A stretch of DNA of 64,000 bases from Candidatus Kaiserbacteria bacterium CG10_big_fil_rev_8_21_14_0_10_49_17 (lineage in GTDB: Bacteria; Patescibacteriota; Minisyncoccia; Phycocordibacterales; JABMNX01). This document shows, piece by piece, positions 13,810 to 52,816 of this stretch. The stretch spans positions 11,057-75,056 of the forward strand of contig PFBJ01000003.1 in the NCBI GenBank assembly GCA_002778575.1, in the 5' to 3' direction. The first letter of the stretch is position 1. Every line of letters begins with the position of its first letter. Both the position numbers and the translations under genes were made by a program. The notes under the pieces were generated by a model. That model was not told where the DNA came from. It did not search any database and saw only the letters and a list, made by a program, of their open reading frames with translations.

Positions 13810-13923
13810 TTATCCTTGCCGCTGTTTATGCCGAGGGTTACTGCACAATACATAGAGCCGCCCTTTGCGGCGTACTGTCTTGCAATTGCTGCAGATTGGC
13901 TTAACAGATGCTTTAACTTTCAT
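13810..13923 (-). CDS. rpmJ: 50S ribosomal protein L36 (37 aa, [37 protein letters not shown])
   Basis: hand-translated from minus strand; C-x2-C...C-x4-H zinc ribbon; sits in canonical infA-rpmJ-rpsM position; below ORF-track length cutoff. Confidence 0.88.
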
Positions 13924-13980: not shown

Positions 13981-14199
13981 CTACAAGCGCCTCACGATAC
14001 GACCTTTTCCGCCGTACGGCTCGAGCTCCACTGCTACTGTGTCGCCAACGAGCACTTTAATTCGATGCATCCGCATCTTTCCTGAAAGGTAGGTGAGGAT
14101 TTGCTCCCCATTTTCAAGTGTCACCCGAAAAAGCGTATTCGGCAGGGCCTCGTCGACCGTACCGTTGACTGCTTCGGGTTTGCTTTTATCCTCTACCAT
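13981..14199 (-). CDS. infA: translation initiation factor IF-1
   Basis: S1-like OB fold [13 protein letters not shown]...GKMR...GRIVRR; start set to MVEDKSK (72 aa). Confidence 0.9.
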
Positions 14200-14243
14200 C
14201 AGGCTCTCGTATCCTACCAGCGCTCTTTCCAATCGTCAAGTCG

Positions 14244-15497
14244 CTACTTGGTTAATTCAAGCGTTATGTCCGATGGATCATCAGGAAATGTTCCTCGCCA
14301 AAACGGGCGGAGGATAACCTCAGCTTTCTCAATACTTGGGTAACCTGAAAGAATAGTCGGCAGAGCCCCTTTCGCTTTCCCAGCAAGATCACGCAGAAGT
14401 TGGTCAGTATCAAATAGCCACGTTAGTGTTGTGTTGCCGGAAAGTGAAAAAGCAAACTCGTCAGCCTCCCACGGCTTTGCACCATCAGCAACTGTAAGAC
14501 TGAGCGCTGAAACGTCCGCACTGACCGAGTCGTCGCTTTTAAATTCAGCTATTGTATTCCGAGCAAGAAATGACGCGAATTCTCCCTCTGGGAAAAGTAC
14601 GGCATAGAGGGTGCCGCTTTGAATAAGACGCGCTCCATCGCCGTCAGCTACTGCCCGTGTTTCGGAATATTCAATCATCGTTGCGCCAGAAACCAATACA
14701 AATCCGTCTGGAATTTGATTCACGATTGATGAGAGGAGCGCCGACTCAAGTGCCTCCTTTAATTCCGCGGTCTTTGCTTCCTTCACGGATTCATCAACTA
14801 CCGCTTGCACACCGACAAATCCTCCAGTGATAGGCGTTTTGCTTCGGGCGTAGAAATGGTCGTATCGGTCATCACCTTTCAGTCCTGGAATTGTAAAATC
14901 AGTCAGTCCGGTGTTGTATTCCTCGCCGGGTTCGTCTGCAAATACTTCTACTTCAATACTTCCCGGCACAACAGCTCCGTTTTCGGTCTTCTGTCCCGGA
15001 ACTGTAACCGACTCTTCAATACGGTAAATACGCCCGTCTGGAGATTCAAATCGAGTGTTTTTTATCAATCGCTGTGGTGTTTTGCTGTAGTCATTGTAAA
15101 TAACGATAAAACCGCTGGCTTTATTCTCAACCTCTTCTTCGCCCGTTGCCTCCACAGTCACTGATTCCTCTTGTGTAATTGTGGCAATTTCATAACCTAA
15201 TTCCTCAAAGCCTGGGTTTTTATACGCACGAAACGTTCCTTCAACAAAACTGCTTCGCTCTTTTGGAGTTACGACAATTTTGGCTCCTGAAAATACATAT
15301 GAAAGGCCGAGCGCGAGCGCTGCCACAGAAATAAGCGCCACAAGCCAGAGACCCCATCGGCTTTTCCGCGCAGAATGCCCATTCGCACTGTCCGCGGCAA
15401 CTCTTTGTGCCCGCATCGGGCGGCGAGAGTCTGAAACTGTCACCTTTCGAATTGACCGCTTCTCTGGTGGTACGATATCTTCTGCATCATTCGCCAT
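14244..15497 (-). CDS. hypothetical bitopic membrane protein (basic cytoplasmic N-term, one TM, about 340-aa extracytoplasmic domain)
   Basis: single TM WGLWLVALISVAALALGLSYVF; immediately downstream of actin-like ATPase; start ambiguous (15497 or 15533). Confidence 0.6.
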   Translation of the reverse strand: MANDAEDIVPPEKRSIRKVTVSDSRRPMRAQRVAADSANGHSARKSRWGLWLVALISVAALALGLSYVFSGAKIVVTPKERSSFVEGTFRAYKNPGFEELGYEIATITQEESVTVEATGEEEVENKASGFIVIYNDYSKTPQRLIKNTRFESPDGRIYRIEESVTVPGQKTENGAVVPGSIEVEVFADEPGEEYNTGLTDFTIPGLKGDDRYDHFYARSKTPITGGFVGVQAVVDESVKEAKTAELKEALESALLSSIVNQIPDGFVLVSGATMIEYSETRAVADGDGARLIQSGTLYAVLFPEGEFASFLARNTIAEFKSDDSVSADVSALSLTVADGAKPWEADEFAFSLSGNTTLTWLFDTDQLLRDLAGKAKGALPTILSGYPSIEKAEVILRPFWRGTFPDDPSDITLELTK

Positions 15498-15507
15498 AGT
15501 CACTCTA

Positions 15508-16674
15508 CTATACCACAGGTTTATTTTTTTCAACCGCTCTTATTCGTTTGGCAAACAGGGCCCCAACCGCAAGAAATGGGTCTTCTTTTACGCTCTTACC
15601 CTTAAACGTGCAGAATTCACAGATCCGATTCGCTGTTAAAAGTTCCGGTGAAAATGCCTCACCAGTCAGTGTAAATGCTCCAAAATCAATTCGTGAGGTA
15701 AGTTCCGCCAACCACAACCCGATTGAGCCGTCACACGCCAGAAGCAGGAAATTTGGCAGTCGTTTTGTCTCTGAAAGCTTGCCGACTGATGACCCGAATT
15801 GCTTTATCCACTTCTGCGCGACTGTCTCGATGCTCTTTTGCACCGTAGAGTCTTCTTTCTGTGTTCCAGACACGCCAAGCGAGAGTCTCGATAGCGACTC
15901 TTCCGGAGTTGTTCCAAGAAGTTCTGCCAAATCGCGGGCAATTGAATGCTTGCCGTACGGAAATGTTACATAATTTGAAAGTATATCTCCGCGGACAACA
16001 CCGATATCCGACACCTCCCCCGTCACATCCATTAGTAGGAAGTCTGATTGCTCGAATACGTCTCGTGCGGTGAGGAAAAACGGGAGAATGAATGAATTGT
16101 AGGAAACAGCCGTCTCCCCAAACTGTTCATCAAATACCCGCTCAAGCGAAGAGTGAAATGCGGTGTCCATATACCCCACCGCAAGGGATAGCGCGATGTG
16201 TTTCGCTTTCTTCTTCTCGGGATTCGCCGTCGGGTATCCGTTTAGCAATACCTGCATCGAAAACTCTTCCGTCTGATCCACGCCGGCCGCAGTCTCTGCA
16301 GCTTTTTCAACGATTTCAGCGCGGGCGCTCTCCAGCAGGGTTTTAATATACGCATCAGTAATGTCTTTCGGCTCATCGTGCTTTGCTTCAATTGACGCTG
16401 TTTCAATGTGCACCCACGGCGACGCGGACATGCATACAATTCTTGAAAATTGATTCACCTGCTCATCGGCAAGCGCTTTGATAAGACGCTCTGATACCAC
16501 CCGGACTGTCTCTGCTGTCTTCTTTTCAAGCGTCTTTGCGTCAAGCACTTCAGTTAGCGTAAGCGGTACTCGTGTTGTGTATGTAATGTGCGGTTGTGTA
16601 TCACCGTCTAACACTACCAGTGCACCCGCGACCGAAGCGCTCCCAATATCAAATAATGCGACGTACTCTCGCAT
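15508..16674 (-). CDS. actin-like ATPase, FtsA/PilM family
   Basis: phosphate-1 FDIGSASVAG, phosphate-2 MDVTGEVSDIGVV, FPYGKHSIARDLAELLG and LLLACDGS adenosine motif; alternative start 16707. Confidence 0.7.
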   Translation of the reverse strand: MREYVALFDIGSASVAGALVVLDGDTQPHITYTTRVPLTLTEVLDAKTLEKKTAETVRVVSERLIKALADEQVNQFSRIVCMSASPWVHIETASIEAKHDEPKDITDAYIKTLLESARAEIVEKAAETAAGVDQTEEFSMQVLLNGYPTANPEKKKAKHIALSLAVGYMDTAFHSSLERVFDEQFGETAVSYNSFILPFFLTARDVFEQSDFLLMDVTGEVSDIGVVRGDILSNYVTFPYGKHSIARDLAELLGTTPEESLSRLSLGVSGTQKEDSTVQKSIETVAQKWIKQFGSSVGKLSETKRLPNFLLLACDGSIGLWLAELTSRIDFGAFTLTGEAFSPELLTANRICEFCTFKGKSVKEDPFLAVGALFAKRIRAVEKNKPVV

Positions 16675-16748
16675 TTCTTTTTTATTTCGGTGGAGAAACA
16701 CAAACATTCTCTACAGTATACGGTCTACGTATCGAATTGCACAGATAA

Positions 16749-18623
16749 TTATTCCAGTACTGCCTTTACGCGGCGCACGCCAGCTGACGATGATTCCTCC
16801 TTCACGATTTTAAATACGCCGGTAATTTCATTCGTATTTGATACATGCGGTCCACCGCAGAGCTCGCGAGACCACACCACCCCATTGGCGTCTCGTAGCG
16901 TATACACTTTAACTACCTCCGGATATTTCTCCCAGAAGCTCCCCTCGACGCCCTCAGCTTTTGCTTGTTCCTTTGGCATTTCCTCAATTGTCATTTCTGC
17001 CTGCGCCTTGATTGCGTCATTGACATACTGTTCAACCTTATCGAGCGTCTCTCGGTCTACTTTTTCAGGATACGTAAAGTCAAAACGCGTACGTTCGGTA
17101 GTAATATTTGATCCCGCCTGGTGCACATCCTCACCGAGGTATTTTCGCAGTCCTGCAAGCAGTAGGTGTGTTGCGCTGTGGTACATGGTTGTCTTCTCTC
17201 CGCCGTCGGCGAGTCCGCCCTTAAATTTCTGCTCCGCTCCCGCACGCGAGAGCGCTTGGTGCTTCTCCATTTCGCTGCGAAACCCCTCCATATCGACAGT
17301 GATGCCCCTCTCAGCAGCAAGCTCGAGCGTCAGTTCAATTGGAAAACCGTGTGTTGTAAAGAGAACAAACGCATCACGTCCAGAAATATTCTCACCGGAG
17401 CGCTTTTCAAATTCTTTAAGTCCGCGCTCGACTGTTTTTCTGAATCGCGCCTCTTCTTCTTCAATATTTTTCTGTATTACGTCTTTCTGCGCGCGCAGAT
17501 TTGGATACTGCGCTTCGTACTGCTGTATCACAATTGGCACGAGAGTGTGGAGCGTATGCGGCTCCATTTCGAGCGTATCCATCTTCAGTACAGCTCTCCG
17601 CAGTAGCCGTCGAACAAAATACCCTTGCTCTGTATTTGACGGAACGACACCGTCTCCAATCATAAATACCGCCCCGCGAAAGTGGTCCGCAACAATTCGA
17701 AATGCCGCGCTTTCTTCCTCATTTTCACCGTACACTTTACCGGAAAGCGATTCGATTTCAGTAATAATGCCGTAGAGAGAGTCAATGCAAAACACATCTG
17801 AGACATCATTCGCAGCTGCAACAATTCGCTCGAGCCCTCCGCCGAAATCGACATTTTGCTGTGGCAGCTTTTCAAATGAACCGTCGCTTTTTTTAATGTA
17901 CTCCATAAAAACAGAGTTGCCGATTTCCATAAAACGCCCGCAATCGCAATTCGGGTGGCAGTGCTCGCCGAATGCCGTGTCGTGTGCTGTTCCAAAGTCA
18001 TAAAAAACCTCGGAATCCGGACCACCGGGCTCCCCCGCCGGCATTTTCTCCGGAGTCCCAGAGCGACTCCACCAATTTTTCTTTGCCTCATAGGCAAATA
18101 TGCGCTCCCCTTCCCGCATGCCGCGCGCATACCCGTCTGCCTCAGTTCCTATATCGACGGCAATCGCGTCAATTCCCTCTTCCTTAAAGATGCGCTTCCA
18201 TATCTCAATTGATTCTTCATCTTTTGTTATGCCGAGTTTCTCATCGCCGCTAAATACCGTGACGTAAAGTTTTTGCGGGTCAAGACCGATTTCCTTTGTA
18301 AGAAATTCAAAAAACCACGGTAACTGTTCTGACTTGAAATAGTCACCGAGCGACCAGTTGCCAAGCATTTCAAAAAAGGTTGTGTGGCGATTGTCACCAA
18401 CCTCTTCTATATCTTCTGCTCGAAATGATTTTTGTGAATCAACAAGACGCACACCGGATGGATGTTTTTCTCCCAGTAGGTACGGCAGAAGCGGCTGCAT
18501 GCCGGAACTGGTGAAAAGTGTTGTCGGATCATTCTCCGGCACGAGCGGCGCTGACGGTATTTCACTATGCTCTCGCGCTTTAAAAAATTCGAGATATGTG
18601 TGGCGAACTTCCGCTGTTGTCAT
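16749..18623 (-). CDS. alaS: alanine--tRNA ligase, short form (catalytic plus editing domains, no C-Ala domain)
   Basis: N-terminal AlaRS block FTSSGMQ...FEMLGNWSLGDYFK, editing HxxxH...CGGPH; start at MTTAEV gives ATGA overlap with upstream small gene. Confidence 0.9.
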   Translation of the reverse strand: MTTAEVRHTYLEFFKAREHSEIPSAPLVPENDPTTLFTSSGMQPLLPYLLGEKHPSGVRLVDSQKSFRAEDIEEVGDNRHTTFFEMLGNWSLGDYFKSEQLPWFFEFLTKEIGLDPQKLYVTVFSGDEKLGITKDEESIEIWKRIFKEEGIDAIAVDIGTEADGYARGMREGERIFAYEAKKNWWSRSGTPEKMPAGEPGGPDSEVFYDFGTAHDTAFGEHCHPNCDCGRFMEIGNSVFMEYIKKSDGSFEKLPQQNVDFGGGLERIVAAANDVSDVFCIDSLYGIITEIESLSGKVYGENEEESAAFRIVADHFRGAVFMIGDGVVPSNTEQGYFVRRLLRRAVLKMDTLEMEPHTLHTLVPIVIQQYEAQYPNLRAQKDVIQKNIEEEEARFRKTVERGLKEFEKRSGENISGRDAFVLFTTHGFPIELTLELAAERGITVDMEGFRSEMEKHQALSRAGAEQKFKGGLADGGEKTTMYHSATHLLLAGLRKYLGEDVHQAGSNITTERTRFDFTYPEKVDRETLDKVEQYVNDAIKAQAEMTIEEMPKEQAKAEGVEGSFWEKYPEVVKVYTLRDANGVVWSRELCGGPHVSNTNEITGVFKIVKEESSSAGVRRVKAVLE

Positions 18624-18877
18624 TGAATAATTTCTATTAGCTGAAATGCGCCAGAGCTCCACGGCGTAAAGCCGTAAAAGAGAACCTCAAGCGTATACCC
18701 AAGTACCATAAACAAAATACCAAGAAGCGCCAAATTTCTCTCTCGCCGCATTTCATTGAGCACCTTCCGGTCTATTCTGTGCTCTTTTACAATGCGCCAG
18801 TGCACCATTACGACCGTAAGGCCGAGTATAATCTTTCCGACAGTGCCTATGGTAAGTCCCCAAAATAGCAGTGACAT
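18620..18877 (-). CDS. small membrane protein (2 TM, 85 aa)
   Basis: two hydrophobic helices; stop overlaps alaS start (ATGA) indicating coupling. Confidence 0.55.
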   Translation of the reverse strand: MSLLFWGLTIGTVGKIILGLTVVMVHWRIVKEHRIDRKVLNEMRRERNLALLGILFMVLGYTLEVLFYGFTPWSSGAFQLIEIIQ

Positions 18878-18883
18878 GTCTGC

Positions 18884-18918
18884 AGTATACCATTTTTAAC
18901 TGCACAAAATGGTATACT
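18884..18918. promoter_or_regulatory. 13-bp perfect inverted repeat AGTATACCATTTT-n9-AAAATGGTATACT containing divergent extended -10 elements (TGGTATACT on each strand)
   Basis: seen directly; each TATACT lies 7-10 nt upstream of the flanking start codons (18877 minus, 18928 plus), implying leaderless transcripts. Confidence 0.55.
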
Positions 18919-18927
18919 CGCCACTAT

Positions 18928-20193
18928 ATGATGCAATTACATTCAAAAACACTGCCAAACAAACTACGAATCCGAGTGGTCGAGATGCCAGGGAGCAACG
19001 CCGTCACATCGCTTGTTCTTGTCGGGGCGGGCTCGCGGTATGAAGAAAAGGAAATTTCCGGAATATCGCATTTTCTCGAGCACATGTTTTTTAAGGGCGG
19101 AGAAATATACACAACTCCAAAAATGGTAAGCGAGACTATAGACGCACTCGGCGCTGAATGTAACGCATTTACCAGTAAGGAATTCGTTGGGTATTACGTA
19201 AAGAGCGGAAAGCGCCATCTGGATACGAGCCTCGACGTGCTCAGTGACATGCTTATTTCCGCAAAGTTTCCTCCGGAAGAAATAGAAAAGGAGAGGGGCG
19301 TTATTCTTGAAGAAATGGCGATGTACCTTGATTTGCCTATGTATCAGGTCGGGTGGGATTTTGAAAATCTTCTTTTTGGAGACCAGCCTATCGGCCGAGA
19401 TGAAATCGGAACAAAAGAGCTTATCACAACTGTTACGCAACAGGACTTTTTTGACTATAAGAACGCGCTCTACACGCCTGAGAATACAGTCATTATTCTG
19501 GCGGGCGCTGTCACCGAATCCGATATCGCACGAATAGAAAAGCACTTTGCATTCGAAAATGGCGTACGGAGCAAAAATGCGCTTGCATACGATCCGGCTC
19601 TTGCGAGCGAGCGCTTCTCAATTCGGATACGCCCGACTGAGCAGTACCACCTCCACTTCGGCGTCGTTGGACTCTCTCTGCGCGACGAGCGGTATCCAGT
19701 GCAGCTTCTGCTTTCAACGATACTCGGCGGAAACATGTCCTCACGAATGTTCCAACACGTCCGTGAAGCGCTTGGTCTGTGCTACTCCATCCGCACCAGC
19801 TCAACTGGCTACACCGATGTCGGTGTTCTTACCACTCGTGCGGGCGTAAAACTTGGAAAAGTTCATGATGCTCTTGCGGCAATTCGGTACGAGTACGACC
19901 GCGCGGCGCAGGAAGGAGTTACAGAAGAAGAACTGCGAAAAGCGCAGAGCTACCTGTGCGGAAAAGAAGATCTTCAGACCGAGGACACGGAGCAGGTAGC
20001 ACTCCACTACGGGCTCAATCAGCTTCTTCATGAACGCGATGAAAGCTTCGAGGATTTAAAGAAAAAAATAAATGCGGTCACAACAGACCAGCTCAATAGT
20101 CTTGCCACGGAGTTATTTGCGCCAGAGCGTTACAATCTTGCACTTATTGGACCGGACATAGACGACGCCAAGGCCCGTGAAGCTATTTCCTAG
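18928..20193 (+). CDS. M16-family zinc metallopeptidase (pitrilysin/insulinase-like)
   Basis: inverted zincin motif HFLEHMFFKG plus downstream E; start placed at MMQLHSK rather than ORF-track 18871. Confidence 0.85.
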   Translation: MMQLHSKTLPNKLRIRVVEMPGSNAVTSLVLVGAGSRYEEKEISGISHFLEHMFFKGGEIYTTPKMVSETIDALGAECNAFTSKEFVGYYVKSGKRHLDTSLDVLSDMLISAKFPPEEIEKERGVILEEMAMYLDLPMYQVGWDFENLLFGDQPIGRDEIGTKELITTVTQQDFFDYKNALYTPENTVIILAGAVTESDIARIEKHFAFENGVRSKNALAYDPALASERFSIRIRPTEQYHLHFGVVGLSLRDERYPVQLLLSTILGGNMSSRMFQHVREALGLCYSIRTSSTGYTDVGVLTTRAGVKLGKVHDALAAIRYEYDRAAQEGVTEEELRKAQSYLCGKEDLQTEDTEQVALHYGLNQLLHERDESFEDLKKKINAVTTDQLNSLATELFAPERYNLALIGPDIDDAKAREAIS

Positions 20194-20612
20194 TGAAGCG
20201 TAATGAGGAGCGCTCCGGCTACCATAAGAAGTGCCCCAAGAAGCGCTTTCCACCCAAGCGCTTCACCCAGAAACAGTGCCGCAAGGAGTACGACAAAAAC
20301 AATTGAGAGCCGGTCAATAGCGACGACGCCTGTCGCTTGGCCTGTTTTTAATGCAAAGAAATAGAAAAGCCACGAAAGCGCACCCGCAATACCTGCCGCG
20401 AGTATAAGGAGCCACTCCCGCGAGCCAAGACCGATAATGGAAAAGCCGTCAAATTTTTTCAGAAACACACTGACAATGACAAGAAAGCCGGCCATGATAA
20501 TAGCCCGAATTGTCGTTGCAAGCGTCGAGTCAAGGTTTTGCAGCCCAAGTTTTGCAAAAATTGCAACCAGCGCCGCCATGAGTGCCGAGAGAAATGCATA
20601 GAGAAGCCACAT
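20190..20612 (-). CDS. EamA/DMT-superfamily small membrane transporter (single EamA domain, 4 TM)
   Basis: four TM helices, EamA-like pattern. Confidence 0.6.
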   Translation of the reverse strand: MWLLYAFLSALMAALVAIFAKLGLQNLDSTLATTIRAIIMAGFLVIVSVFLKKFDGFSIIGLGSREWLLILAAGIAGALSWLFYFFALKTGQATGVVAIDRLSIVFVVLLAALFLGEALGWKALLGALLMVAGALLITLH

Positions 20613-20621
20613 ATGTATATC

Positions 20622-21197
20622 TTATCGCAACGATTCAAGGAAACTCTTATACTCGTCGAATGTTTCGTTTAGACGGACTCGAAGCGGATGTTCGCCCAGT
20701 TTCTCAGAGATAATAGCAACGAGTGCGCCATATACGTATATTCTGTCATCAATGTTTCCTGAGAACTGATTCTTAAAATCATCGGGATGCCCGCTGAATT
20801 CCCTGATAGCATTTGAAAAATTATGTATCTTATCCGCTGCAGCGACAATAGCAGACTCCAGTGGGGCTTTTTGTAAATTTTCCCCATACGCTCGGCGGCT
20901 CTTTTCCCACTCAGTTGCGCCTATCGCTTGCGGAATCGTAACACCAAGTACGATGTTCTTCACTCGCGCGCCGAATTCTTCTTCTATCTCTTCAGGCAAA
21001 ATATTCGTGTCTTCCACTATGTCGTGGAGGAGCGCGGCAATAATGACATCTTCTTCAGTGCAGTATTCGCTCACTATCCACGCAACTGACACGAGGTGGG
21101 TGATGTAGGGGGTCTTCTTTTCTCCTTTCCTATACTGCCCCTCGTGCACTCTGGCAACTTTTTCAAGCGCTTTCTCAATTTCAGGAGTGAAATGCAT
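20622..21197 (-). CDS. HD-domain phosphohydrolase, (p)ppGpp-hydrolase-like (RelA/SpoT HD family)
   Basis: HxxxH...LLHDIVEDT metal-binding signature. Confidence 0.75.
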   Translation of the reverse strand: MHFTPEIEKALEKVARVHEGQYRKGEKKTPYITHLVSVAWIVSEYCTEEDVIIAALLHDIVEDTNILPEEIEEEFGARVKNIVLGVTIPQAIGATEWEKSRRAYGENLQKAPLESAIVAAADKIHNFSNAIREFSGHPDDFKNQFSGNIDDRIYVYGALVAIISEKLGEHPLRVRLNETFDEYKSFLESLR

Positions 21198-21223
21198 ATA
21201 TAGAGAGCATCATACCATACGCA

Positions 21224-21931
21224 ATGAATGACTTGAGAATGGTGTACACTGCCCGTATGGCACATGCCGACATAAAACTGGCTCCCGAGTGGAAGGTGCT
21301 TTTAGCCGCAGAATTTACTGCACCGTATTTTACAGAGTTGGCTGAGTTGGTTCGCGCAGAATACCTTACACATACGGTCTTTCCTCCTCCGAAATACATT
21401 TTCCGCGCACTTGATTTAGTGGCGCCGTCTGACGTAGCGGTAGTCATCCTTGGGCAAGACCCGTACCACACCCCTGGTGTCGCTGACGGACTCGCATTTT
21501 CAACAGGAAGCAAGAATCGCATTCCGCCATCACTTGCAAATATCTTTAAAGAAATAGAAAGCGAGTTTGCTGTGCCGTGCATACAGAATCCGGATCTAAC
21601 TCGGTGGGCGAACCAAGGAGTACTGCTTCTTAATGCGTCGCTCTCGGTACGCTCTGGCGAGGCAAATTCACACGCTCTGTACGGGTGGCACACATTTACC
21701 GATGCAATTATCAAATCCCTATCGGAAAATTACTCACATATTGTTTTTATGCTCTGGGGCACGTTTGCAGGGAAAAAAGAGGTGCTCATTGACTCACATA
21801 CGCACTTGGTATTGAAATCGGCTCACCCATCACCGCTCTCCGCGCATCGAGGTTTTTTTGGAAATGCGCACTTTACGCGGGCGAATGCCTATCTAATTAA
21901 AAACGGAAAGAAACCTATTGACTGGAGGTAA
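21224..21931 (+). CDS. ung: uracil-DNA glycosylase, family 1
   Basis: GQDPYH water-activating loop, HPSPLSA leucine-loop motif; true start may be internal (MAHADIK, about 21257). Confidence 0.9.
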   Translation: MNDLRMVYTARMAHADIKLAPEWKVLLAAEFTAPYFTELAELVRAEYLTHTVFPPPKYIFRALDLVAPSDVAVVILGQDPYHTPGVADGLAFSTGSKNRIPPSLANIFKEIESEFAVPCIQNPDLTRWANQGVLLLNASLSVRSGEANSHALYGWHTFTDAIIKSLSENYSHIVFMLWGTFAGKKEVLIDSHTHLVLKSAHPSPLSAHRGFFGNAHFTRANAYLIKNGKKPIDWR

Positions 21932-22175
21932 GTGCTCCTTCATTTCTTAGAAGCGTTGCTTTCTCGCCCCGCAGGCCATTGTAGCCGCCAAGTGTTCCAT
22001 TCGCGCGGATGACCCTATGACACGGCACACGTTTATCAGTATTGTTTTTCATTACCACCCCCACTGCTCGCGCCGCGCGCGGGCTTCCCGCACGTGCTGC
22101 CACCTCGCCATATGAGAGCGTCTTCCCTTCTGGAATCCCGCGCACTATTGCCACCACTCGCTCAGTAAAATCCAT
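21915..22175 (-). CDS. ogt: methylated-DNA--protein-cysteine methyltransferase DNA-binding domain protein (MGMT C-terminal domain only)
   Basis: PCHRV active-site motif, about 86 aa stand-alone domain. Confidence 0.8.
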   Translation of the reverse strand: MDFTERVVAIVRGIPEGKTLSYGEVAARAGSPRAARAVGVVMKNNTDKRVPCHRVIRANGTLGGYNGLRGEKATLLRNEGALTSSQ

Positions 22176-22176
22176 A

Positions 22177-23043
22177 TTAGAACAATGATCCAGTATCTGT
22201 GGCGCTGGACTGTGGCGGCACATCTAATTTTGGTTGCGCCGCGGAGTATCGCTCCTGGAGTTTTTTGCCAGCGTACTTTCGGTAGGTGCAGTAGTCACAC
22301 TCCGGGTGCGCGTCCGGTATATTCTCGCTATCAAGACACTCTTTAATGCGAAGCAGTGTTGGTTCTATCCATGATCCGTCTCCCGTATACGGAATGAGTG
22401 TTACCTCAAAAATGAGTTTTCCGTCGAATGCTTTCTCATCCTTGCTTGCATTCGCATAGACAAAGTAACCCGTATCAGAGACGCGAAAACCATTCTGCCT
22501 CAAAAGCCACTGGTATACTTCCATCTGGCGTTTGTAGCCGTCCTGCCAATCTTTATTTAACTCCTCAATTTTCTCATCCTTGCTCGTTGACTTGTAGTCA
22601 ACGACCAGCAATTCTTCTTCGGGGGTCACCCACACGTCATCCACCGCACCTGAAATAGTAAATCCGGTCTTTTTATGCGTGCACTCTATCCCCTTAAAAT
22701 TTTCCCGCCAAATGTCCAGCTTGCTATGAGCAAATGGAATTGCATGTATGCCGTACTGCTCCATGAGCGGGTGCGCCGTTTTATCCGCCCGGTGAATATC
22801 GAACTCTTTTTTAAGCAGTGCATCAACCGCGCTATTGAGTGCGAATGGGTACCCAGGCGGACGGGCGGTTCCGAGCTTATTGTCGAGGTAGAAGCACCGC
22901 GGACACTCAACAAAAAGATCAATCTTTGAACGGGAGAGGCGCCACCGAGGGCCGCCATAATTCCAATCCGCTTTCCTGTCGGGCTTGTAGTATGAACTCA
23001 TGCATCGCAGTATACCACTGCTCACACTCTCACAAAATCCCAA
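22177..23043 (-). CDS. PD-(D/E)xK nuclease with 4-Cys Fe-S cluster (Cas4/RecB-like exonuclease family), no CRISPR context
   Basis: N-terminal CPRC, core VVDYKS (D-x-K), C-terminal CDYCTYRKYAG three-Cys motif. Confidence 0.7.
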   Translation of the reverse strand: MGFCESVSSGILRCMSSYYKPDRKADWNYGGPRWRLSRSKIDLFVECPRCFYLDNKLGTARPPGYPFALNSAVDALLKKEFDIHRADKTAHPLMEQYGIHAIPFAHSKLDIWRENFKGIECTHKKTGFTISGAVDDVWVTPEEELLVVDYKSTSKDEKIEELNKDWQDGYKRQMEVYQWLLRQNGFRVSDTGYFVYANASKDEKAFDGKLIFEVTLIPYTGDGSWIEPTLLRIKECLDSENIPDAHPECDYCTYRKYAGKKLQERYSAAQPKLDVPPQSSATDTGSLF

Positions 23044-23046
23044 CCG

Positions 23047-23547
23047 CTACTCGCCCTCTTCCTCTTCAATCCGCACAGGCGTTTTCTTTGCAGAGTCTGT
23101 CCACGCTTTCAGTCTGTCTTCAATAAACCAAAGCGCTGTGAAGGCCAAGAGCGCGAGGAGTGCTGAGAAAATGGCGATCGCATAGAGTCCAAAACCAATA
23201 GCAATACCGATTCCTGACGCAACCCATAACCCCGCCGCGGTCGTGAGCCCCCTGAGCTCATCTCCTCGGAAGATAATGATTCCCGCTCCGATAAATCCGA
23301 TACCGGTAATAATCCCAGCAACAACACGCATCGGGTCGAAATTTACCAGACCCAAGTACGAATGCGTTACTTGAATTCCAATAACCGTAAAGAGGCATGA
23401 GCCGAGAGAGACCAGTGCAAATGTTCGCGAGCCGGCCCGTTTCCCTGCGACAACAGAGCGTTCTGTTCCCAGCAAGAGGCCGAGCAGGAGCGCGAGGCTA
23501 AGCTGGCCAAAGACGATGAGTAACGAAGCCGGTACGAATGGTTCCAT
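23047..23547 (-). CDS. mgtC: MgtC/SapB-family membrane protein
   Basis: MgtC N-terminal signature LLGLLLGTER, 4-5 TM. Confidence 0.8.
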   Translation of the reverse strand: MEPFVPASLLIVFGQLSLALLLGLLLGTERSVVAGKRAGSRTFALVSLGSCLFTVIGIQVTHSYLGLVNFDPMRVVAGIITGIGFIGAGIIIFRGDELRGLTTAAGLWVASGIGIAIGFGLYAIAIFSALLALLAFTALWFIEDRLKAWTDSAKKTPVRIEEEEGE

Positions 23548-23565
23548 TACGGAAAGTATAGCATA

Positions 23566-23594
23566 TTGACTCCCGTCAACCTGATTTGTATGTT
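23566..23594 (+). promoter_or_regulatory. sigma-70-type promoter: -35 TTGACT, 17-bp spacer, -10 TATGTT with upstream TG
   Basis: near-consensus hexamers 30-55 nt upstream of ATG 23623, followed by AAGGAG RBS. Confidence 0.6.
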
Positions 23595-23622
23595 TAAAAC
23601 GGCATAGAAGAAGGAGTGCGTG

Positions 23623-23982
23623 ATGAAAATCCGCTTAACTGAAGAAAATCAAGGCGACTTTTGCGGTTGGAAAATCGTACTGATGGAATCCGGAGGCGCC
23701 ACGCGTGGTGAATTTGGCGGACTGAAGGAGGGAATGCTTGGGGCGAAAATCCTTTCTTACAAACCCGGAACCAAGGAGCTGTACAACGAGGTGACGGGAA
23801 AGTGGGAGCCGGCAGAGTGTATCCTCAATGACTTCGAGGGTCCCGCAACAAGCTCTATGCTTGAGTTTCATCAGGGCGATGGTGGAATTCTCTGTATGGG
23901 CATTCCGTATATCGGTCCCTGCTACCTCGTGCCTCCCGACGTAGAACTTTCTCTCCCCTCGCGAAAGATGTTCTGCGATTAG
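23623..23982 (+). CDS. hypothetical small protein (120 aa), orphan plus-strand gene
   Basis: strong promoter, AAGGAG RBS 6 nt upstream, double terminator downstream; no recognisable domain. Confidence 0.6.
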   Translation: MKIRLTEENQGDFCGWKIVLMESGGATRGEFGGLKEGMLGAKILSYKPGTKELYNEVTGKWEPAECILNDFEGPATSSMLEFHQGDGGILCMGIPYIGPCYLVPPDVELSLPSRKMFCD

Positions 23983-23987
23983 AGCTA

Positions 23988-24012
23988 AAGGCGCCCTCTG
24001 GGCGTCTTTTTG
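23988..24012 (+). terminator. rho-independent terminator
   Basis: AGGCGCCC-tct-GGGCGTCT hairpin followed by TTTTT. Confidence 0.75.
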
Positions 24013-24015
24013 TAT

Positions 24016-24055
24016 AAAAAAATCGACTCAGTCAGGTGACTGAGTCGATTTTTTG
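24016..24055. terminator. bidirectional rho-independent terminator
   Basis: A7 - ATCGACTCAGTC-aggt-GACTGAGTCGAT (12-bp perfect stem) - T6. Confidence 0.8.
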
Positions 24056-24074
24056 GGCTCATATAAGCCGTTTT

Positions 24075-24638
24075 CTAATTTGTTCGAAATGCACTCATAA
24101 GAGGAGCTCCGCCGGCCCCAAGAGCTGGGAAATCTGTATCGAGTGAGAATTCTCTATCGCCATTGTCTTGGTAAATGACGGCAAAATAGAGAGCATTTGC
24201 TGTTGTGCCGCGAAGCAACTCAACAACGACGTTTTCATGCACTCCCGCCTCAAGACGTGCCGCTCCGAGAGCATTACCGATTTGATTATCACTGCCTTCA
24301 TGAATGACAACCCATCCGGTTTCTTGTAATTCAACCTTTCGGACAGTAACGCTCATACCCGCAGGTTGATTTGAAACTGCGATCGCGGAATTACTTGTCA
24401 GCACTGGCGCTGACCCGCTTCCTGAATCTGTATCTCCTGATACATCGGGATTCACACCTGAGCCAATGAGCCCTGAATCACCTGATTTTATGTCACTATC
24501 ATCATCAATTACCGCGGTATCATCTGTGCGGCTCTCTGCGCTTTCGCTCTTTGGGCCAAGGTAAAGCCACGTAAGCGCTGATCCGATGAGAAGACCAGTG
24601 ACGAATAGCGCACCAAATTTGACATACTGATTATTCAT
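24075..24638 (-). CDS. hypothetical secreted/membrane-anchored protein (N-terminal TM, acidic Ser/Asp-rich linker)
   Basis: signal-anchor FGALFVTGLLIGSALTWLYLG; no known domain. Confidence 0.55.
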   Translation of the reverse strand: MNNQYVKFGALFVTGLLIGSALTWLYLGPKSESAESRTDDTAVIDDDSDIKSGDSGLIGSGVNPDVSGDTDSGSGSAPVLTSNSAIAVSNQPAGMSVTVRKVELQETGWVVIHEGSDNQIGNALGAARLEAGVHENVVVELLRGTTANALYFAVIYQDNGDREFSLDTDFPALGAGGAPLMSAFRTN

Positions 24639-24681
24639 GTTCTTTTCTGATTTTTATTACTTACAAAAAAGTTGGCCTATT

Positions 24682-25533
24682 TTACATTGCTACACCGCTT
24701 GTGCACAAGTCCTGAGCTTCTCGCATTGCTTCCGCGGCTTTCTCGGGTGTTATGCCGTGCTCCGTAAGAACACTTGCGCCCGCCTTAATTGAGCGACACA
24801 GAACAAGTTTGTCTTCAAGTAGTCGCTGTTTTTCCGACTCTGAGAGCGTTGTGAGGCACGTAATAGGGTGCAGACCTGTTTCTGAAACAAGATCCTGTAA
24901 ATTGCCGCTTTCCGGGTAATTCCAGCCGATAAGCGTCAGCCCGACACACTTTCCGTATTCAATTGCATTACCGGTAAATTTTGTATTCGTAATGAGCATC
25001 CCGCGCTCAATGTGCGCTTCTCCCTCTACTTTCGGAGCTTCGGCTAAATCAATAAAGCGCGCCCGCACGTACAGCGCTACCTTTAGGTCGGTTTTCATCC
25101 CGGGACTGTTATGAAATTTTACCTCGGCACCAAATGCATCATCAGCTGACGTCGCGATAAGATCCACCTCGTGTTCAGCGCACTTTCCGTTTGTGATAAC
25201 TCCCGTCATGACGTCGTAGCCTTTCGCGCGGAAAATTTCACTTACGAAATCCTCAAACGGAAAACCGGACGGGCCGAGCGCTAGGATTGCCCGCTTCAGT
25301 GAATAGCGTGCCGCAACGGGACGCACCTCTTTCTCCCGTAAATAATTAAATGCTCGTGAGTAAATTTCTTGAGTCGACATGCCGTCTTTCATTTCAGAAA
25401 CCACCTGCGTTGTTATTTCCGCAATAGTTTTCTCTCCCGCGCCTGCCCGGGTAAGAGAGCGCTTGAGCTTTTCCGGATCAAACGGCTCCCGCTCTCCATC
25501 AGCTTTAACAATTGTGACGCTTTTTTTCTCCAT
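24682..25533 (-). CDS. ATP-cone domain fused to Mrr-type PD-(D/E)xK restriction-endonuclease-like domain
   Basis: N-terminal ATP-cone (VTIVKADGEREPFDPEKLKRSL...), then FEDFVSEIFRAKGYDV...EVDLIA...AEVKF (D...ExK) matching Mrr_cat. Confidence 0.65.
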   Translation of the reverse strand: MEKKSVTIVKADGEREPFDPEKLKRSLTRAGAGEKTIAEITTQVVSEMKDGMSTQEIYSRAFNYLREKEVRPVAARYSLKRAILALGPSGFPFEDFVSEIFRAKGYDVMTGVITNGKCAEHEVDLIATSADDAFGAEVKFHNSPGMKTDLKVALYVRARFIDLAEAPKVEGEAHIERGMLITNTKFTGNAIEYGKCVGLTLIGWNYPESGNLQDLVSETGLHPITCLTTLSESEKQRLLEDKLVLCRSIKAGASVLTEHGITPEKAAEAMREAQDLCTSGVAM

Positions 25534-25546
25534 ATGTGTATCTTAT

Positions 25547-26623
25547 CTAATGTCTCGTTGTATCACTAGTCGCAATTATGCCTCCACCGAGACACTCACC
25601 GTCTTTGTAGAGTACTAACGACTGTCCCGGGGAGGGTTTCTCTGCGGATTCAGCAAGCGAAACAGACGAGTCCTCTATAACTGCCCTCCGGAGCGCTCCT
25701 CGATGCCGGGTACGCGCGTCTGCCTCTCCGTGCGGTACCTCGCGAATCCAATGCGTATTTTCAAGTGTAATGCTTTCTGCTGCTGTCTCTTCAGGAGACC
25801 CACTTCGGACCGTAATGGTATTTTTTTCAATATCTTTCGCGATAACGAAATGAGCGCGCTCATCTGTCTTTTGCGACGTGACCGTAAAGCCGTGCCGCTG
25901 CCCGTACGTATAGAGTATTGCCCCTTCGTGCTCCCCAATAACAGCTCCGGCTTCATTTAAAACAGCTCCGCTATTCGTGGGAATATACTGTCGTATGAAG
26001 TCTCGTATTTCCACATCTCCAATAAAACAGAGACCTTGGCTTTCAGAACGCGTGGCACTGGGAAGTCTGTGTTCTACTGCGTACGCACGCACTTCATCCT
26101 TTGTCATTGCGTAGAGTGGAAAGAGCGAACGAGAGAGCTGCTGCTGCGTAAGTGTCCACAGAAAGTACGTCTGGTCCTTTGTTTTATCCTTTGGTTGTAA
26201 AAGCGCATACGCGCCTTCTTTTTCCTCAACTGCCCCATAGTGGCCAGTTGCTATGGCATCCGCGCCTTCTGCAAGCGCATAGTCAAGAAAAGCTCCGAAT
26301 TTAACCGACCGGTTGCACATCACATCAGGATTTGGAGTGCGTCCCGCGGTGTATTCAGCTATCAGGTAATCTATAACTTCTTTTTTGTACACATCGGAGA
26401 GATCGAGTGTTTGAAATGGGATTTCAAGGTGTGCGGCACTGCGAAGAGCAGCCGCTCTATCTTCTTCCCATGTGCAGTGTATAAACTCCGGTTGCCAAAT
26501 TTTGATAAAAACGCCCACAACCGCGTATCCCTGATTTTTGAGAATGTGCGCGGCAACAGAAGAATCGACCCCGCCCGAGAGTCCGACAAAAATTGTTTTC
26601 TGTGTATCACTCATCACTGCCAC
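25547..26623 (-). CDS. mnmA: tRNA-specific 2-thiouridylase MnmA
   Basis: PP-loop VGLSGGVDSSV, catalytic Cys residues. Confidence 0.92.
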   Translation of the reverse strand: MAVMSDTQKTIFVGLSGGVDSSVAAHILKNQGYAVVGVFIKIWQPEFIHCTWEEDRAAALRSAAHLEIPFQTLDLSDVYKKEVIDYLIAEYTAGRTPNPDVMCNRSVKFGAFLDYALAEGADAIATGHYGAVEEKEGAYALLQPKDKTKDQTYFLWTLTQQQLSRSLFPLYAMTKDEVRAYAVEHRLPSATRSESQGLCFIGDVEIRDFIRQYIPTNSGAVLNEAGAVIGEHEGAILYTYGQRHGFTVTSQKTDERAHFVIAKDIEKNTITVRSGSPEETAAESITLENTHWIREVPHGEADARTRHRGALRRAVIEDSSVSLAESAEKPSPGQSLVLYKDGECLGGGIIATSDTTRH

Positions 26624-26646: not shown

Positions 26647-27660
26647 CTAATTAACATAGAGTGCCTTCTTTCTTTTATGCTCCTCAAACGTTCGAGAAAA
26701 GTACGTCACACCGTTTCTATCAGCCAAGTAGTAGAGGTAGTTACTCTCAATCGGCTCAGCTGCGGCAATAATCGATTCGATAGACGGACTGCCGATCGGC
26801 GTCGGTGGGAGCCCTTTGTGCTGGTATGTGTTATACGGCGACGAGGCGTCAGCGAGCTCGGCTTTGGTAATATCGTATGTACCCTTCCCGTTTATGTAAC
26901 GGAATGTCGCGTCAACCTGAAGCGCCATATCAATATCCAACCGATTCCATAACACGCTGGCTATACGTCGCTTTACCTCAAAATCATGCGCCTCTCGTTC
27001 AAGTATTGACGCCATTATGACAATATCCTCCACGGAGCGCCCTGAAGCTCCAAGCCGCAATGCAATATCTTCAATGCGCGCGAAGAACGTACCGCGCAAA
27101 ACCGAGACGACTTCATCTGCCGTAGTGCTTGGCAGAAAGTGGTACGTATCAGGGTAGAGGTACCCCTCAAATTGCGTGGCAATCTGCGTAAAGCGTTCCG
27201 CGTCGAAGCGAGGCAGTACACTCTGTAACTGTTGCGCCATCTCTGCCACTGTTGACCCCTCTTCAATCCTCACTGTAATGGTATCAAGCCCGTACTCTCC
27301 GCGATTCATTCTCCACGCAAGCGCAAGTACGTTTTCCCTTGTGTCGAGATAGTAATCTCCTGCTATGACTTTTCCTCCGAAAAGAAGTGCGGCTGCTTTA
27401 AACACCGTAGCTGACTGGATAATGCCGTTTTCTTTCAGTAGTGATGCAGTACTGCCAATTGTCCCGCCGCTTTTAACGGTAATGACGTGTTGCGTAGGAA
27501 ATGTATGCGGCGGCGCAATGAGCGTTGAATATGTCAGTGAGATAAGAAAAAGAACCGCAACTGCAAAAAGTGCGGCAGTTTCTCTATTGCGATTGTGTCG
27601 CATCCATGTATGAAGTCGCTCATGCCTTGAGCGCATTTTTTCTATTAGCACGCGCATCAT
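26647..27660 (-). CDS. mltG: endolytic murein transglycosylase MltG (YceG-like)
   Basis: N-terminal TM, YceG domain, conserved YYLADRNGVTYFSRTFEEH region. Confidence 0.82.
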   Translation of the reverse strand: MMRVLIEKMRSRHERLHTWMRHNRNRETAALFAVAVLFLISLTYSTLIAPPHTFPTQHVITVKSGGTIGSTASLLKENGIIQSATVFKAAALLFGGKVIAGDYYLDTRENVLALAWRMNRGEYGLDTITVRIEEGSTVAEMAQQLQSVLPRFDAERFTQIATQFEGYLYPDTYHFLPSTTADEVVSVLRGTFFARIEDIALRLGASGRSVEDIVIMASILEREAHDFEVKRRIASVLWNRLDIDMALQVDATFRYINGKGTYDITKAELADASSPYNTYQHKGLPPTPIGSPSIESIIAAAEPIESNYLYYLADRNGVTYFSRTFEEHKRKKALYVN

Positions 27661-28988
27661 GTCGGGAGATTTGTGGGCGCGCCGCCGGTCGTGCTTGGGA
27701 TACGGCGAAGTGCGGGGGCCGATACAGCCTCGCCAGGGAAGTGATAGAGAGTCGCAAGCTCTTCCGTATTAAGCACGAAGTGCGGAGTCTCGTACGGCGG
27801 GTAAAACCACGAACGCCGTTTATACGCGTCAATGATTGCCGCTTTCATTTTGTTTTTCTTTCTATCCTTATAGTCCTGCCACGGATAGCTGAATGCCGTA
27901 AACCACCCCGTCGGAGCAAACCCATTGAGTAAATCATCATTTAATTGCTTTAGTGAGATGGTAAGCGCAGGAATATTCGAAGCATTGAAATTCTCCTTCT
28001 TTGCAATATAAATACCACGAATACCCGCATCAAAACCGGGCTTGCTGATACTCCGTTCGATTGCCTCGAGTTGCAGTTTCTGGCCGAATGTAGGATTTGG
28101 AAAACCTGGAAATTCTTGCCCTGGATATTGCGGAGAAGATTCTTCACGAATTTTCTGAATCATCGCTTTCGCCTCGTCCTTCCATGACACATACCCGCCA
28201 AACGGCCCCCACCCAGCATCTTTTTTAAAGCGTTTGTCTTCCGATAGCTTGTCTTTATTTTGACGAATCAGTATCTGAAACCACAGCTGCTCCCCGGGCC
28301 CCATTCGGCCGAGAAATTCGAAGAAACCGGCCATTGGGTCAATTTTATATTCTTCTTTCGGATCTTTATCGAGACCGTAGTCAACGTACGTACGAATCGG
28401 GAGGGCGTCTTCTTTGGTGAGTTTAAAATCGCACCCCCACACATTCATCGTTTCAACATTAAATTCTACGAATTTTGTATAGTCCTCAACTTCAGTTATC
28501 TGCACGTTCGGGTACTGCCCGTATATTTGCGCCTCAACAATGTCTTGTAAGAAACGCCGAGTCCAAATAAAGAAATGAATTTCTCCTTCAATGGAAGCTA
28601 TTTCAAGCGAGAACCACGGACGCACTCTTCCCTCCAGCCATCTGTTGATAAATGTTGCCTCTCCCATGCCAAGATGAAAATTGGTGAGGACCGTTTCCAT
28701 TGCTTTTGGTGATTTTGAAATTTCCTGGGGAAGCCGGATCTCCAGCAATACGTATTCCTGAGAGTTGATAAATTTCGTTCGAATGTATGTTTTCCACATT
28801 CCCCAAAACACAAACAGCAGCACTACCGGAAGCCATAACGGAGAGAGCGCGAGTATGCCGCGAAAGACGGAACCGAGGAGCGACGGGGAGAGGTACGTAA
28901 TAACCGAGAGTATGATGACAAGCACCGGTACCAAGACGGTAGTCGGTGAAAACCCGAATTTATCTGCAAGGTTAACGAGCCATTGCAT
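27657..28988 (-). CDS. hypothetical membrane protein (3 N-terminal TM plus about 330-aa soluble domain)
   Basis: 4-nt overlap with mltG start suggests co-transcription/coupling; no known domain. Confidence 0.55.
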   Translation of the reverse strand: MQWLVNLADKFGFSPTTVLVPVLVIILSVITYLSPSLLGSVFRGILALSPLWLPVVLLFVFWGMWKTYIRTKFINSQEYVLLEIRLPQEISKSPKAMETVLTNFHLGMGEATFINRWLEGRVRPWFSLEIASIEGEIHFFIWTRRFLQDIVEAQIYGQYPNVQITEVEDYTKFVEFNVETMNVWGCDFKLTKEDALPIRTYVDYGLDKDPKEEYKIDPMAGFFEFLGRMGPGEQLWFQILIRQNKDKLSEDKRFKKDAGWGPFGGYVSWKDEAKAMIQKIREESSPQYPGQEFPGFPNPTFGQKLQLEAIERSISKPGFDAGIRGIYIAKKENFNASNIPALTISLKQLNDDLLNGFAPTGWFTAFSYPWQDYKDRKKNKMKAAIIDAYKRRSWFYPPYETPHFVLNTEELATLYHFPGEAVSAPALRRIPSTTGGAPTNLPT

Positions 28989-36648: not shown

Positions 36649-36684
36649 AGTGTAGTCACCGGAGCAAGCTCCAATGACTACACT
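36649..36684. promoter_or_regulatory. 10-bp perfect inverted repeat AGTGTAGTCA-n16-TGACTACACT upstream of efflux operon
   Basis: seen directly; core AGTGTAGT/ACTACACT shared with hairpin at 48170-48207. Confidence 0.45.
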
Positions 36685-36820
36685 CCAAACGTATCATGCA
36701 CAGTATCGTTTTGCAAGAGTTTGCAAAGGTGCTGTGGATAAATGCGATCCTAATCCGAATAATTCCCTCTACAAAGCCAATTTTGACAAATTGTGTATTT
36801 TAATGTACTTTTATCCAGCT

Positions 36821-38476: not shown

Positions 38477-38477
38477 T

Positions 38478-50980: not shown

Positions 50981-50981
50981 A

Positions 50982-52751: not shown

Positions 52752-52816
52752 GTGTTTTAGTATACCGCAGAGGTACGCTGTCATAGCTATTTCTGTGGGA
52801 AAAGAAACACCCGCCG

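Follow-up and report, generated by a model that had tools for sequence, protein, structure and literature searches.

We analyzed a 64,000-nucleotide stretch of a Candidatus Kaiserbacteria contig (Paceibacteria, in the candidate phyla radiation [CPR]) from the CG10 Crystal Geyser series; we will refer to this whole stretch as the window. Two adjacent genes on its minus strand, COU17_00275 and COU17_00270, encode an actin-like protein that belongs to the same clade as FtsA and PilM and a membrane-anchored protein (its partner) with the fold of the phage baseplate protein J. Both genes are real and under selection. On balance, we favor the view that together they form a conserved two-component membrane-spanning module that is specific to Paceibacteria, made of a third FtsA/PilM paralog and a partner that resembles baseplate wedge proteins and has its N terminus in the cytoplasm (N-in). 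The structural and comparative facts behind this view are, in our judgment, solid. We did not find a description of the pair in the literature or among the database names that we saw, and both genes are annotated only as "hypothetical protein."

Conservation of the gene pair

In a survey of one genome per species across 185,579 species, we found relatives of the partner in at least 441 species. The best 80 of these 441 partner-bearing genomes are all Patescibacteria: Kaiser-, Campbell-, Taylor-, Wolfe-, and Zambryskibacteria, "Paceibacterota," and metagenome-assembled genomes that carry the generic label of Saccharibacteria. These 80 loci and five others from earlier look-ups gave us 85 loci in which to compare gene order. 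The actin-like gene lies directly upstream of the partner gene, on the same strand, in 79 of the 85. Three of the six exceptions are at the end of a contig, where there is no room for another gene, which leaves 79 of 82 informative loci with the pairing. The flanking genes are conserved as well: alaS is upstream in 61 of the 68 loci with room for it, and infA and rpsM are downstream in 66 of 76. The most divergent relatives of the actin-like protein (P0157 and P0150) keep the alaS-pair-infA arrangement.

In the window, the co-directional neighbors are, in order, alaS, the pair, infA, rpmJ, rpsM, rpsK, rpsD, rpoA, rplQ, rplM, rpsI, grpE, dnaK, and dnaJ. About 41 nt separate alaS from the pair, 10 nt separate the two genes of the pair, and about 44 nt separate the pair from infA. 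That the pair sits in a block of closely spaced, co-directional housekeeping genes suggests a constitutive envelope function. We saw no promoter or terminator signals above chance in positions 13300-19000 (one "terminator" falls inside rpmJ), and none of the PADLOC models of defense systems matched.

A first-pass annotation of the window had placed an ATPase gene and a gene for a bitopic membrane partner at 14244-16707, with the second gene either 10 nt away from the first or overlapping it. The outer coordinates are correct, and the two genes run in the same direction. As for the junction, the gap stands and the overlap does not: the partner's ATG at 15497 is 10 nt past the stop codon of the actin-like gene and matches the start of COU17_00270, while the overlap would require a TTG start at 15533, which is not needed. 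Conservation of the N-terminal peptide MFVFLHRNKKE among relatives shows that the actin-like gene truly starts at its first ATG (16707).

The actin-like protein evolves fast. Within the same set of genomes, its median identity to the window's version was 27.5%; the corresponding medians were 40.4% (partner), 49.6% (alanyl-tRNA synthetase, AlaRS), and about 67% (S13 and RpoA).

The actin-like protein belongs to the FtsA/PilM clade

When Pfam and NCBIfam were searched with the single sequence of the actin-like protein, the only matches were below threshold and were to FtsA, gp25, and TssE. The match to Pfam's FtsA family (PF14450) had E = 0.16 and 12.7 bits, as compared to a cutoff of 31.8. Neither the FtsA and PilM families of NCBIfam nor PilM_2 from Pfam (PF11104) matched, and phmmer found nothing in the Protein Data Bank (PDB) for this protein or for the partner. 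Pfam searches with 37 relatives gave weak matches to FtsA for 13 of them, weak matches to Ppx-GppA for 9, and no matches to PilM_2. There are homologs, and their sequences diverge rapidly: a word-indexed search identified 9, a profile search identified 36, and when 1.84 billion cluster representatives were searched exhaustively with a profile, 4,317 were identified with E ≤ 1e-3, including 2,065 with E ≤ 1e-30.

We then considered the predicted structure. An AlphaFold2 model of residues 12-399 (the query started at Met12), made with a 37-sequence input, has a predicted local distance difference test score (pLDDT) of 91.7 and a predicted template modeling score (pTM) of 0.90. Structure comparison of this model to E. 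coli FtsA (7q6d) gave a score of 25.0, with 333 of 383 residues aligned. The scores for FtsA from T. maritima and S. aureus were 24.3 and 23.9, and those for PilM from M. xanthus and T. thermophilus were 23.9 and 23.8. Sugar kinases, ParM, EutJ, MreB, Hsp70, and Ppx scored 16.6 or less, with about 220-260 residues aligned. The extra residues that align with FtsA correspond to the 1C (SHS2-type) insert, at residues ~99-181, so the protein shares with FtsA and PilM an actin fold with 1C in place of 1B. A profile of the family also matched the sequences of FtsA (E = 2.8e-5) and PilM (E = 0.004) in the PDB, and in the profile alignment, the family's NGY..nP sits on the "G--IKNP" of FtsA. Because both the structure comparison and the family profile reach FtsA and PilM, the actin-like protein is a member of the FtsA/PilM clade, as the first-pass annotation had proposed, and we did not find a clear assignment to a sugar-kinase or Hsp70 clade.

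The first-pass annotation also reported both phosphate loops and the adenosine motif of an FtsA/PilM/EutJ clade. The phosphate loops are indeed present and are invariant or nearly so across the family; the phosphate-2 loop has an invariant glutamate at the position of the third glycine in FtsA. The adenosine motif, in contrast, is degenerate. In FtsA and PilM, GG would be expected at the turn between a strand and a helix, and going by position in the modeled fold, the equivalent site in this family would be [A/S]-D, not GG.

Within the model, subdomain 2B, on which FtsA binds the C-terminal peptide of FtsZ, is a three-helix unit. The matches to gp25 (Pfam, E = 0.0014) and TssE (NCBIfam, E = 0.023), at 15813..15950 on the minus strand (residues 253-298), lie on this helical subdomain and were found in just 1 of 37 members, so we judged them to be due to chance.

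The two ends of the protein are informative about how it might reach the membrane. Past the motif in the last helix of the fold, the family has a tail with a median length of 8 residues. The tail is 2-21 residues long in 104 of 109 motif-matched relatives, and the other 5 values are mis-hits of the regular expression. Given such a short tail, the linker and amphipathic membrane-targeting helix of FtsA are absent; an actin fold with 1C and without a C-terminal membrane-targeting helix is what would be expected for PilM. At the other end, 117 of the 147 relatives with a locatable DIGS motif have an N-terminal extension of 14-24 residues, from which we derived a Phe/Lys-rich consensus. By analogy to the amphipathic N termini of other bacterial actins, this peptide is a possible membrane-binding element. 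In one subclade (loci L004 and L005), two small open reading frames (ORFs) of 65 and 74 amino acids, with no match in Pfam, are inserted between alaS and the actin-like gene (L004, 5479-5958; L005, 192-671), and the actin-like protein of this subclade does not have the N-terminal Phe/Lys peptide.

The partner is a membrane-anchored protein of the baseplate-J fold

A word search with the partner gave more than 1,451 matches; the best 120 of these were 40-52% identical to it, and none had a functional name. An AlphaFold2 model of the partner (pLDDT of 89.3) has disordered residues 1-44, a helix at 48-68, and a compact, mostly-beta ectodomain at 71-417.

Several lines of evidence relate this ectodomain to phage baseplate wedge proteins. 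According to Foldseek, the best structural matches include gp31 of cyanophage A-1(L) (E = 9e-7) and gp47 of phage Mu (E = 1.3e-5), both with a probability of 1.0, and nearly the whole ectodomain is collinear with the best matches among phage wedge proteins (357-384 columns). In sequence comparisons, PHROG 6 ("baseplate wedge subunit") matched the partner with E = 2.7e-4, and the partner of a divergent relative has a weak precomputed match to Baseplate_J from Pfam. The beta-barrel domain of GlxA (PF21110) matched residues 126-215 with E = 7e-9 and matched 47 of 60 relatives; this region falls within the central beta-barrel, which is the most conserved part of the protein. A multidomain fold that includes a central beta-barrel is as expected for the J/gp47/gp6 family. 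We conclude that the partner, which is anchored in the membrane, has the baseplate-J fold.

The first-pass annotation had suggested that the partner might have an FtsQ/POTRA fold or a PilN/PilO fold, and we found the baseplate-J/gp47-like fold with a GlxA barrel instead. Neither FtsQ/DivIB/POTRA nor PilN or PilO was among the partner's structural matches listed, and PilN and PilO were not among its Pfam matches. The partner does not have the external POTRA domain and FtsQ beta domain of FtsQ/DivIB. It also does not have the architecture of PilN or PilO, which is a short coiled coil with a ferredoxin-like domain in about 170-220 amino acids: the partner has 417 amino acids and an ectodomain of about 350 amino acids that is mostly beta.

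With respect to the topology of the partner, the first-pass annotation described a basic cytoplasmic tail, a single transmembrane segment, and an external domain of about 340 amino acids, and this description agrees with what we found: the tail has 11 K/R and 6 D/E, there is one hydrophobic segment, and the external domain has about 347 amino acids. Among 60 relatives, all 60 have exactly one hydrophobic segment, and 51 have more K+R on its N-terminal side. Because of the single segment, the bias in charge, and the basic tail, the partner is predicted from its sequence to be an N-in bitopic membrane protein.

Near the start of the tail is a short, strongly conserved peptide, which we identified from an alignment of the 60 relatives. 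The linker between this motif and the transmembrane segment is variable and basic, and the distance between them is mostly about 40-85 residues. A strict regular expression for the motif matches at 58 of the 85 loci, and at most of the remaining loci listed, a shortened form that centers on the D-[IVM] pair is retained. Across about 1.06 Mb of related DNA, the motif was confined to the partner's ORF. By analogy to the systems described below, we propose that this peptide may be a docking site for the actin-like protein.

Relation to FtsA, PilM, and other known systems

FtsA and PilM grip the short, N-terminal cytoplasmic tails of the bitopic proteins FtsN and PilN in the cleft between subdomains 1A and 1C (PMC7613929). 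Is the pair a divergent version of one of these systems? The linkage to ftsZ or to the dcw cluster that is expected for ftsA was not found, and neither was the pilMNO(PQ), pilB, pilC, or pilin context that is expected for pilM; instead, the pair is flanked by alaS and infA. The first-pass annotation recommended a search for ftsZ or for pilB and pilC beyond the pair. We scanned the window and 86 related loci (about 1 Mb) and saw no tubulin signature of FtsZ, no Walker A motif of PilB/T, and no prepilin motif, and there were no Pfam matches to FtsZ, PilB/T, or prepilins among the window's ORFs of at least 150 amino acids, nearly all of which were scanned. A different contig, reached from one protein at the end of the window, did not have ftsA, ftsZ, or pil genes either.

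Parcubacteria do have these systems elsewhere. In a set of 17 Parcubacteria genomes, ftsA (COG0849) is present in 15, with locus tags that adjoin ftsZ and that differ from the infA locus, and pilM (COG4972) is present in all 17, among the locus tags of pilB and pilC in a pilus operon (Nelson & Stegen, PMC4508563, Table S1). The locus tags next to infA are absent from the core-gene table of that study. Also, the annotated ftsA is expressed in Paceibacteria (PMC9938205). The simplest reading is that the actin-like gene is a third paralog of the clade and is not the cell's FtsA or PilM. The first-pass annotation considered a divergent division or pilus-assembly module; given where ftsA and pilM are found in Parcubacteria, a divergent FtsA or a divergent PilM is less likely than a third paralog.

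The first-pass annotation judged, correctly, that neither ftsQ-ftsA nor pilM-pilN is a good fit for the pair. As compared to PilM-PilN of type IVa pili (for example, from Thermus thermophilus, PDB 2YCH), the pair is not linked to pilO/P/Q, pilB/C/T, or pilins; its tail motif differs from that of PilN, in a longer tail; the partner's ectodomain is baseplate-J-like and does not have the PilN fold; and the actin-like protein does not match PilM_2 and has [A/S]-D in place of GG. As compared to FtsA-FtsN or FtsA-FtsQ(DivIB) (PDB 7Q6D, 7Q6I, and 1E4F), the actin-like protein does not have the C-terminal amphipathic helix and its gene is away from ftsZ and dcw; the partner does not have POTRA, FtsQ-beta, or SPOR domains; and a separate ftsA exists in Parcubacteria. 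By analogy, the pair would work most like PilM/PilN or FtsA/FtsN, yet it does not belong to either system by these tests.

The partner also differs from the proteins that its ectodomain resembles. Wedge proteins of the family that includes J, gp47, the core of T4 gp6, and TssF (as in Mu gp47, PDB 9KI1, and cyanophage A-1(L) gp31, PDB 8KEA) are components of baseplates, whereas the partner has a membrane anchor and a cytoplasmic tail, and it is encoded on the chromosome, in synteny with housekeeping genes and with no sheath, tube, or other wedge genes nearby. Only the barrel, of about 135-148 residues, is common to the partner and GlxA, a radical copper oxidase from Streptomyces lividans (PDB 4UNM), but the partner does not have the propeller of the copper oxidase.

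A more general precedent is provided by MreB-RodZ and GspL/EpsL, in which an actin fold on the cytoplasmic side is coupled or fused to a protein that crosses the membrane once and has a domain outside. We propose the same basic design for the actin-like protein and its partner.

A proposed mechanism

We propose that the actin-like protein, which lacks the C-terminal helix of FtsA, would reach the membrane via the N-terminal peptide of the partner, which would be clamped in the cleft between 1A and 1C, as for PilM with PilN and FtsA with FtsN. The N-terminal Phe/Lys peptide of the actin-like protein may assist in membrane binding. If the actin-like protein then oligomerizes along the cytoplasmic surface of the membrane, it could position or cluster the baseplate-like domains outside. 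The clamp is suggested by the fold assignments, the missing C-terminal anchor, the N-in partner with its conserved N-terminal peptide, the adjacency of the genes, and the precedent of FtsA and PilM. We consider it plausible, with about even chances of being right. Candidate envelope functions for the module include division, organization of the wall or surface layer, and cell-cell attachment.

Some observations weigh against a dedicated module with a third paralog. The Foldseek template modeling scores between the partner and baseplate proteins are about 0.2, which implies that the arrangement of the domains differs: the domain content is common, and the overall shape is not. Nucleotide binding by the actin-like protein is uncertain, given the degenerate adenosine position in its sequence. 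At three loci with room for it (L044, 5950-7266; L078, 2636-4054; and L079, 5965-7233; all Patescibacteria), the partner gene comes directly after alaS, without the actin-like gene in between, and these partners keep the N-terminal motif (for example, QDVTPPKRSIHDIP). The motif in these genomes may have another purpose, or the actin-like gene may be located elsewhere or lost. Changes in the tail motif showed no evident correlation with changes in the N terminus of the actin-like protein. Finally, the canonical ftsA and pilM are documented in a set of 17 Parcubacteria genomes (15 of them for ftsA) that may or may not carry the pair, and our view of this genome covers 64 kb.

Alternative explanations

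The actin-like protein could be the cell's true FtsA, highly divergent, with the partner as a functional analog of FtsQ/DivIB or FtsN and with the division module moved out of the dcw cluster. This would fit with membership in the clade, but the membrane helix is missing, there is no linkage to ftsZ, and Parcubacteria have a separate ftsA, so we consider it unlikely. We are slightly more skeptical that the two genes are a divergent PilM and PilN, that is, the inner-membrane alignment subcomplex of a type IV or competence pilus. The architecture is like that of such a subcomplex: the ATPase gene comes first, its product has no C-terminal membrane anchor, and the next gene encodes a bitopic protein whose cytoplasmic N terminus includes a conserved peptide. 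In addition, genes for type IV pili are among the core genes of Parcubacteria (PMC4508563). Yet there is no pilB, pilC, pilT, pilO, or pilin gene near any of the loci; PilM_2 did not match any of the 37 relatives; the large baseplate-J-like ectodomain is unlike the small coiled-coil and ferredoxin-like PilN; and COG4972 pilM is already accounted for by the pilus operon of Parcubacteria.

Two other explanations would leave the genes functionally unrelated, and both seem very improbable to us. If the partner were a remnant of a prophage or of a contractile injection system (a baseplate J gene), then its adjacency to the actin-like gene would be meaningless. Its structural likeness and weak sequence likeness to wedge proteins would be expected under this scenario, and the weak gp25/TssE match on the upstream protein could be seen in the same light, except that this match has the distribution and location described above. 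A remnant would not be expected to hold the same position in a block of housekeeping genes at 79 of 85 loci, with relatives in at least 441 species, or to have a transmembrane anchor and a conserved cytoplasmic tail. Furthermore, we did not find sheath, tube, spike, or other baseplate genes (including gp25/W and gpI/gp7) among the larger ORFs of the window or the called genes of five related contigs, and neither a contig scan nor tblastn found relatives of the partner in viral contigs or phage genomes. The other such explanation is that the upstream protein is an enzyme from another actin-fold clade, such as a sugar kinase, a Ppx/GppA phosphatase, or an Hsp70-like protein, and that the partner has nothing to do with it. 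The weak Ppx-GppA matches of nine relatives point in this direction, as does a match to GppA in the profile-to-PDB search (E = 0.007, over the first 47 residues only); the structure comparison, in which the sugar kinases, Ppx, and Hsp70 scored well below FtsA and PilM, points the other way.

Implications of a possible third FtsA/PilM-type system

More speculatively, the module might be an undescribed envelope-spanning apparatus of Paceibacteria, in which a dedicated third actin of the FtsA/PilM type, assembled into filaments or rings on the inside, organizes through the membrane an anchored, cellular homolog of the baseplate wedge proteins of contractile injection systems on the outside. We view this as a tentative idea that is doubtful as it stands. 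If true, it would couple a bacterial cytoskeletal protein to a structural module that is "phage-like," which would be a new combination, and it might be a platform for surface architecture, division, or attachment to host cells in episymbiotic, ultra-small bacteria.

To our knowledge, FtsA and PilM are the two characterized members of the 1C-bearing branch of bacterial actins, and each of them grips the cytoplasmic tail of a bitopic protein. A third, lineage-wide paralog with its own partner would show that this design, an actin that clamps a membrane tail, has been put to use again with another external module. In this case, the module would be a baseplate-wedge-like protein without a phage context, which is a fold that was not previously associated with FtsA or PilM. 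With the partner, the baseplate J fold family also gains a member that is non-viral and anchored in the membrane, and this is relevant to where baseplate components came from. Paceibacteria are uncultured bacteria with reduced genomes and are probably episymbiotic, and the biology of their envelopes is almost unexplored. A conserved, probably constitutively expressed transmembrane module would be a concrete target for study in these bacteria.

Features of the locus

The features of the two genes and of their immediate neighbors are listed in Table 1. Residue numbers refer to the protein that contains each feature.

Table 1. Coordinates in the window of the gene pair, its domains and motifs, and flanking genes
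Feature	Coordinates	Strand	Residues or length	Comment
alaS	16749..18662	-		upstream of the pair
Actin-like gene	15508..16707	-	399 aa	identical to NCBI COU17_00275, "hypothetical protein," Candidatus Kaiserbacteria bacterium
N-terminal Phe/Lys-rich peptide MFVFLHRNKKE	16675..16707	-		family M-[SGA]-F-[FS]-[SL]-F-x-K-K-K; candidate membrane-binding element
Phosphate-1 loop DIGSASVAG	16624..16650	-	20-28	D, G, S, A, and S invariant in 37 sequences
1C (SHS2-type) insert	16165..16413	-	~99-181	flanked by conserved ASPW and LNGYxTxxP
Phosphate-2 loop DVTGEVSD	16006..16029	-	227-234	family DVTGExTD; aligns with FtsA DIGGGTMD
Degenerate adenosine-motif position LLLACDGS	15724..15747	-		family [A/S]-D; strand 309-314 and helix 316-328 in the model
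Last helix of the fold, DPFLAVGALFAKR	15544..15582	-		protein ends 11 residues further on
Bitopic partner gene	14244..15497	-	417 aa	identical to NCBI COU17_00270, "hypothetical protein"
N-terminal cytoplasmic peptide EDIVPPEKRSIRKV	15441..15482	-	6-19	family [FL]xD[IV]xPPxxRSIRxI, from an alignment of 60 relatives; putative docking peptide
Single transmembrane helix WGLWLVALISVAALALGLSYVF	15291..15356	-	48-69	hydrophobic segment; predicted N-in
Extracytoplasmic domain	14247..15287	-	71-417	baseplate wedge J/gp47-like
Central beta-barrel	14817..15122	-	126-227	most conserved part, QRLIKNTRF...FYARSKTxMTGGF
infA	13981..14199	-		downstream of the pair
rpmJ	~13810..13923	-		downstream of infA

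The AlaRS encoded upstream of the pair is short. It has 637 amino acids in the window and 596-655 in relatives (L001-L004, L087, and L088), and the only Pfam domains listed for it are tRNA-synt_2c and tRNA_SAD.

Synteny also extends further upstream. A longer arrangement of genes (ATP-cone/Mrr_cat, a PD-(D/E)XK nuclease, an MGMT-like DNA_binding_1 protein, UDG and/or HD, a peptidase, alaS, the pair, and infA) is found in the window, where the part before alaS spans about 18800..25600, and at L087 and L088. This arrangement is kept even in distant relatives.

Other genes in the window

Away from the pair, a few other genes in the window are unusual. A protein of 340 amino acids at 42593..43615 on the minus strand is an ATP:guanido phosphotransferase, with matches to both the N-terminal domain (PF02807, E = 8e-24) and the catalytic domain (PF00217, E = 7e-71). 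It is an arginine-kinase-like phosphagen kinase rather than an McsB-type protein, which is unusual for a reduced CPR genome. At 36674..41576 on the plus strand, a membrane-fusion protein of the HlyD family (600 amino acids) is followed by a full-length AcrB transporter of the resistance-nodulation-division family (1,032 amino acids, E = 1.5e-193). These two genes resemble part of a tripartite pump, in a lineage that is generally regarded as monoderm.

Three large ORFs have no matches in Pfam, all on the minus strand: 49499..50995 (498 amino acids), 50982..52901 (639 amino acids), and 27657..28988 (443 amino acids). The first two of these overlap by 14 nt and lie between uvrC and uvrA. Finally, a protein of 344 amino acids at 29058..30092 on the minus strand combines Sigma70 region 4 with HARE-HTH and DUF3320, which is unusual for a sigma-related or RNA polymerase-associated factor.

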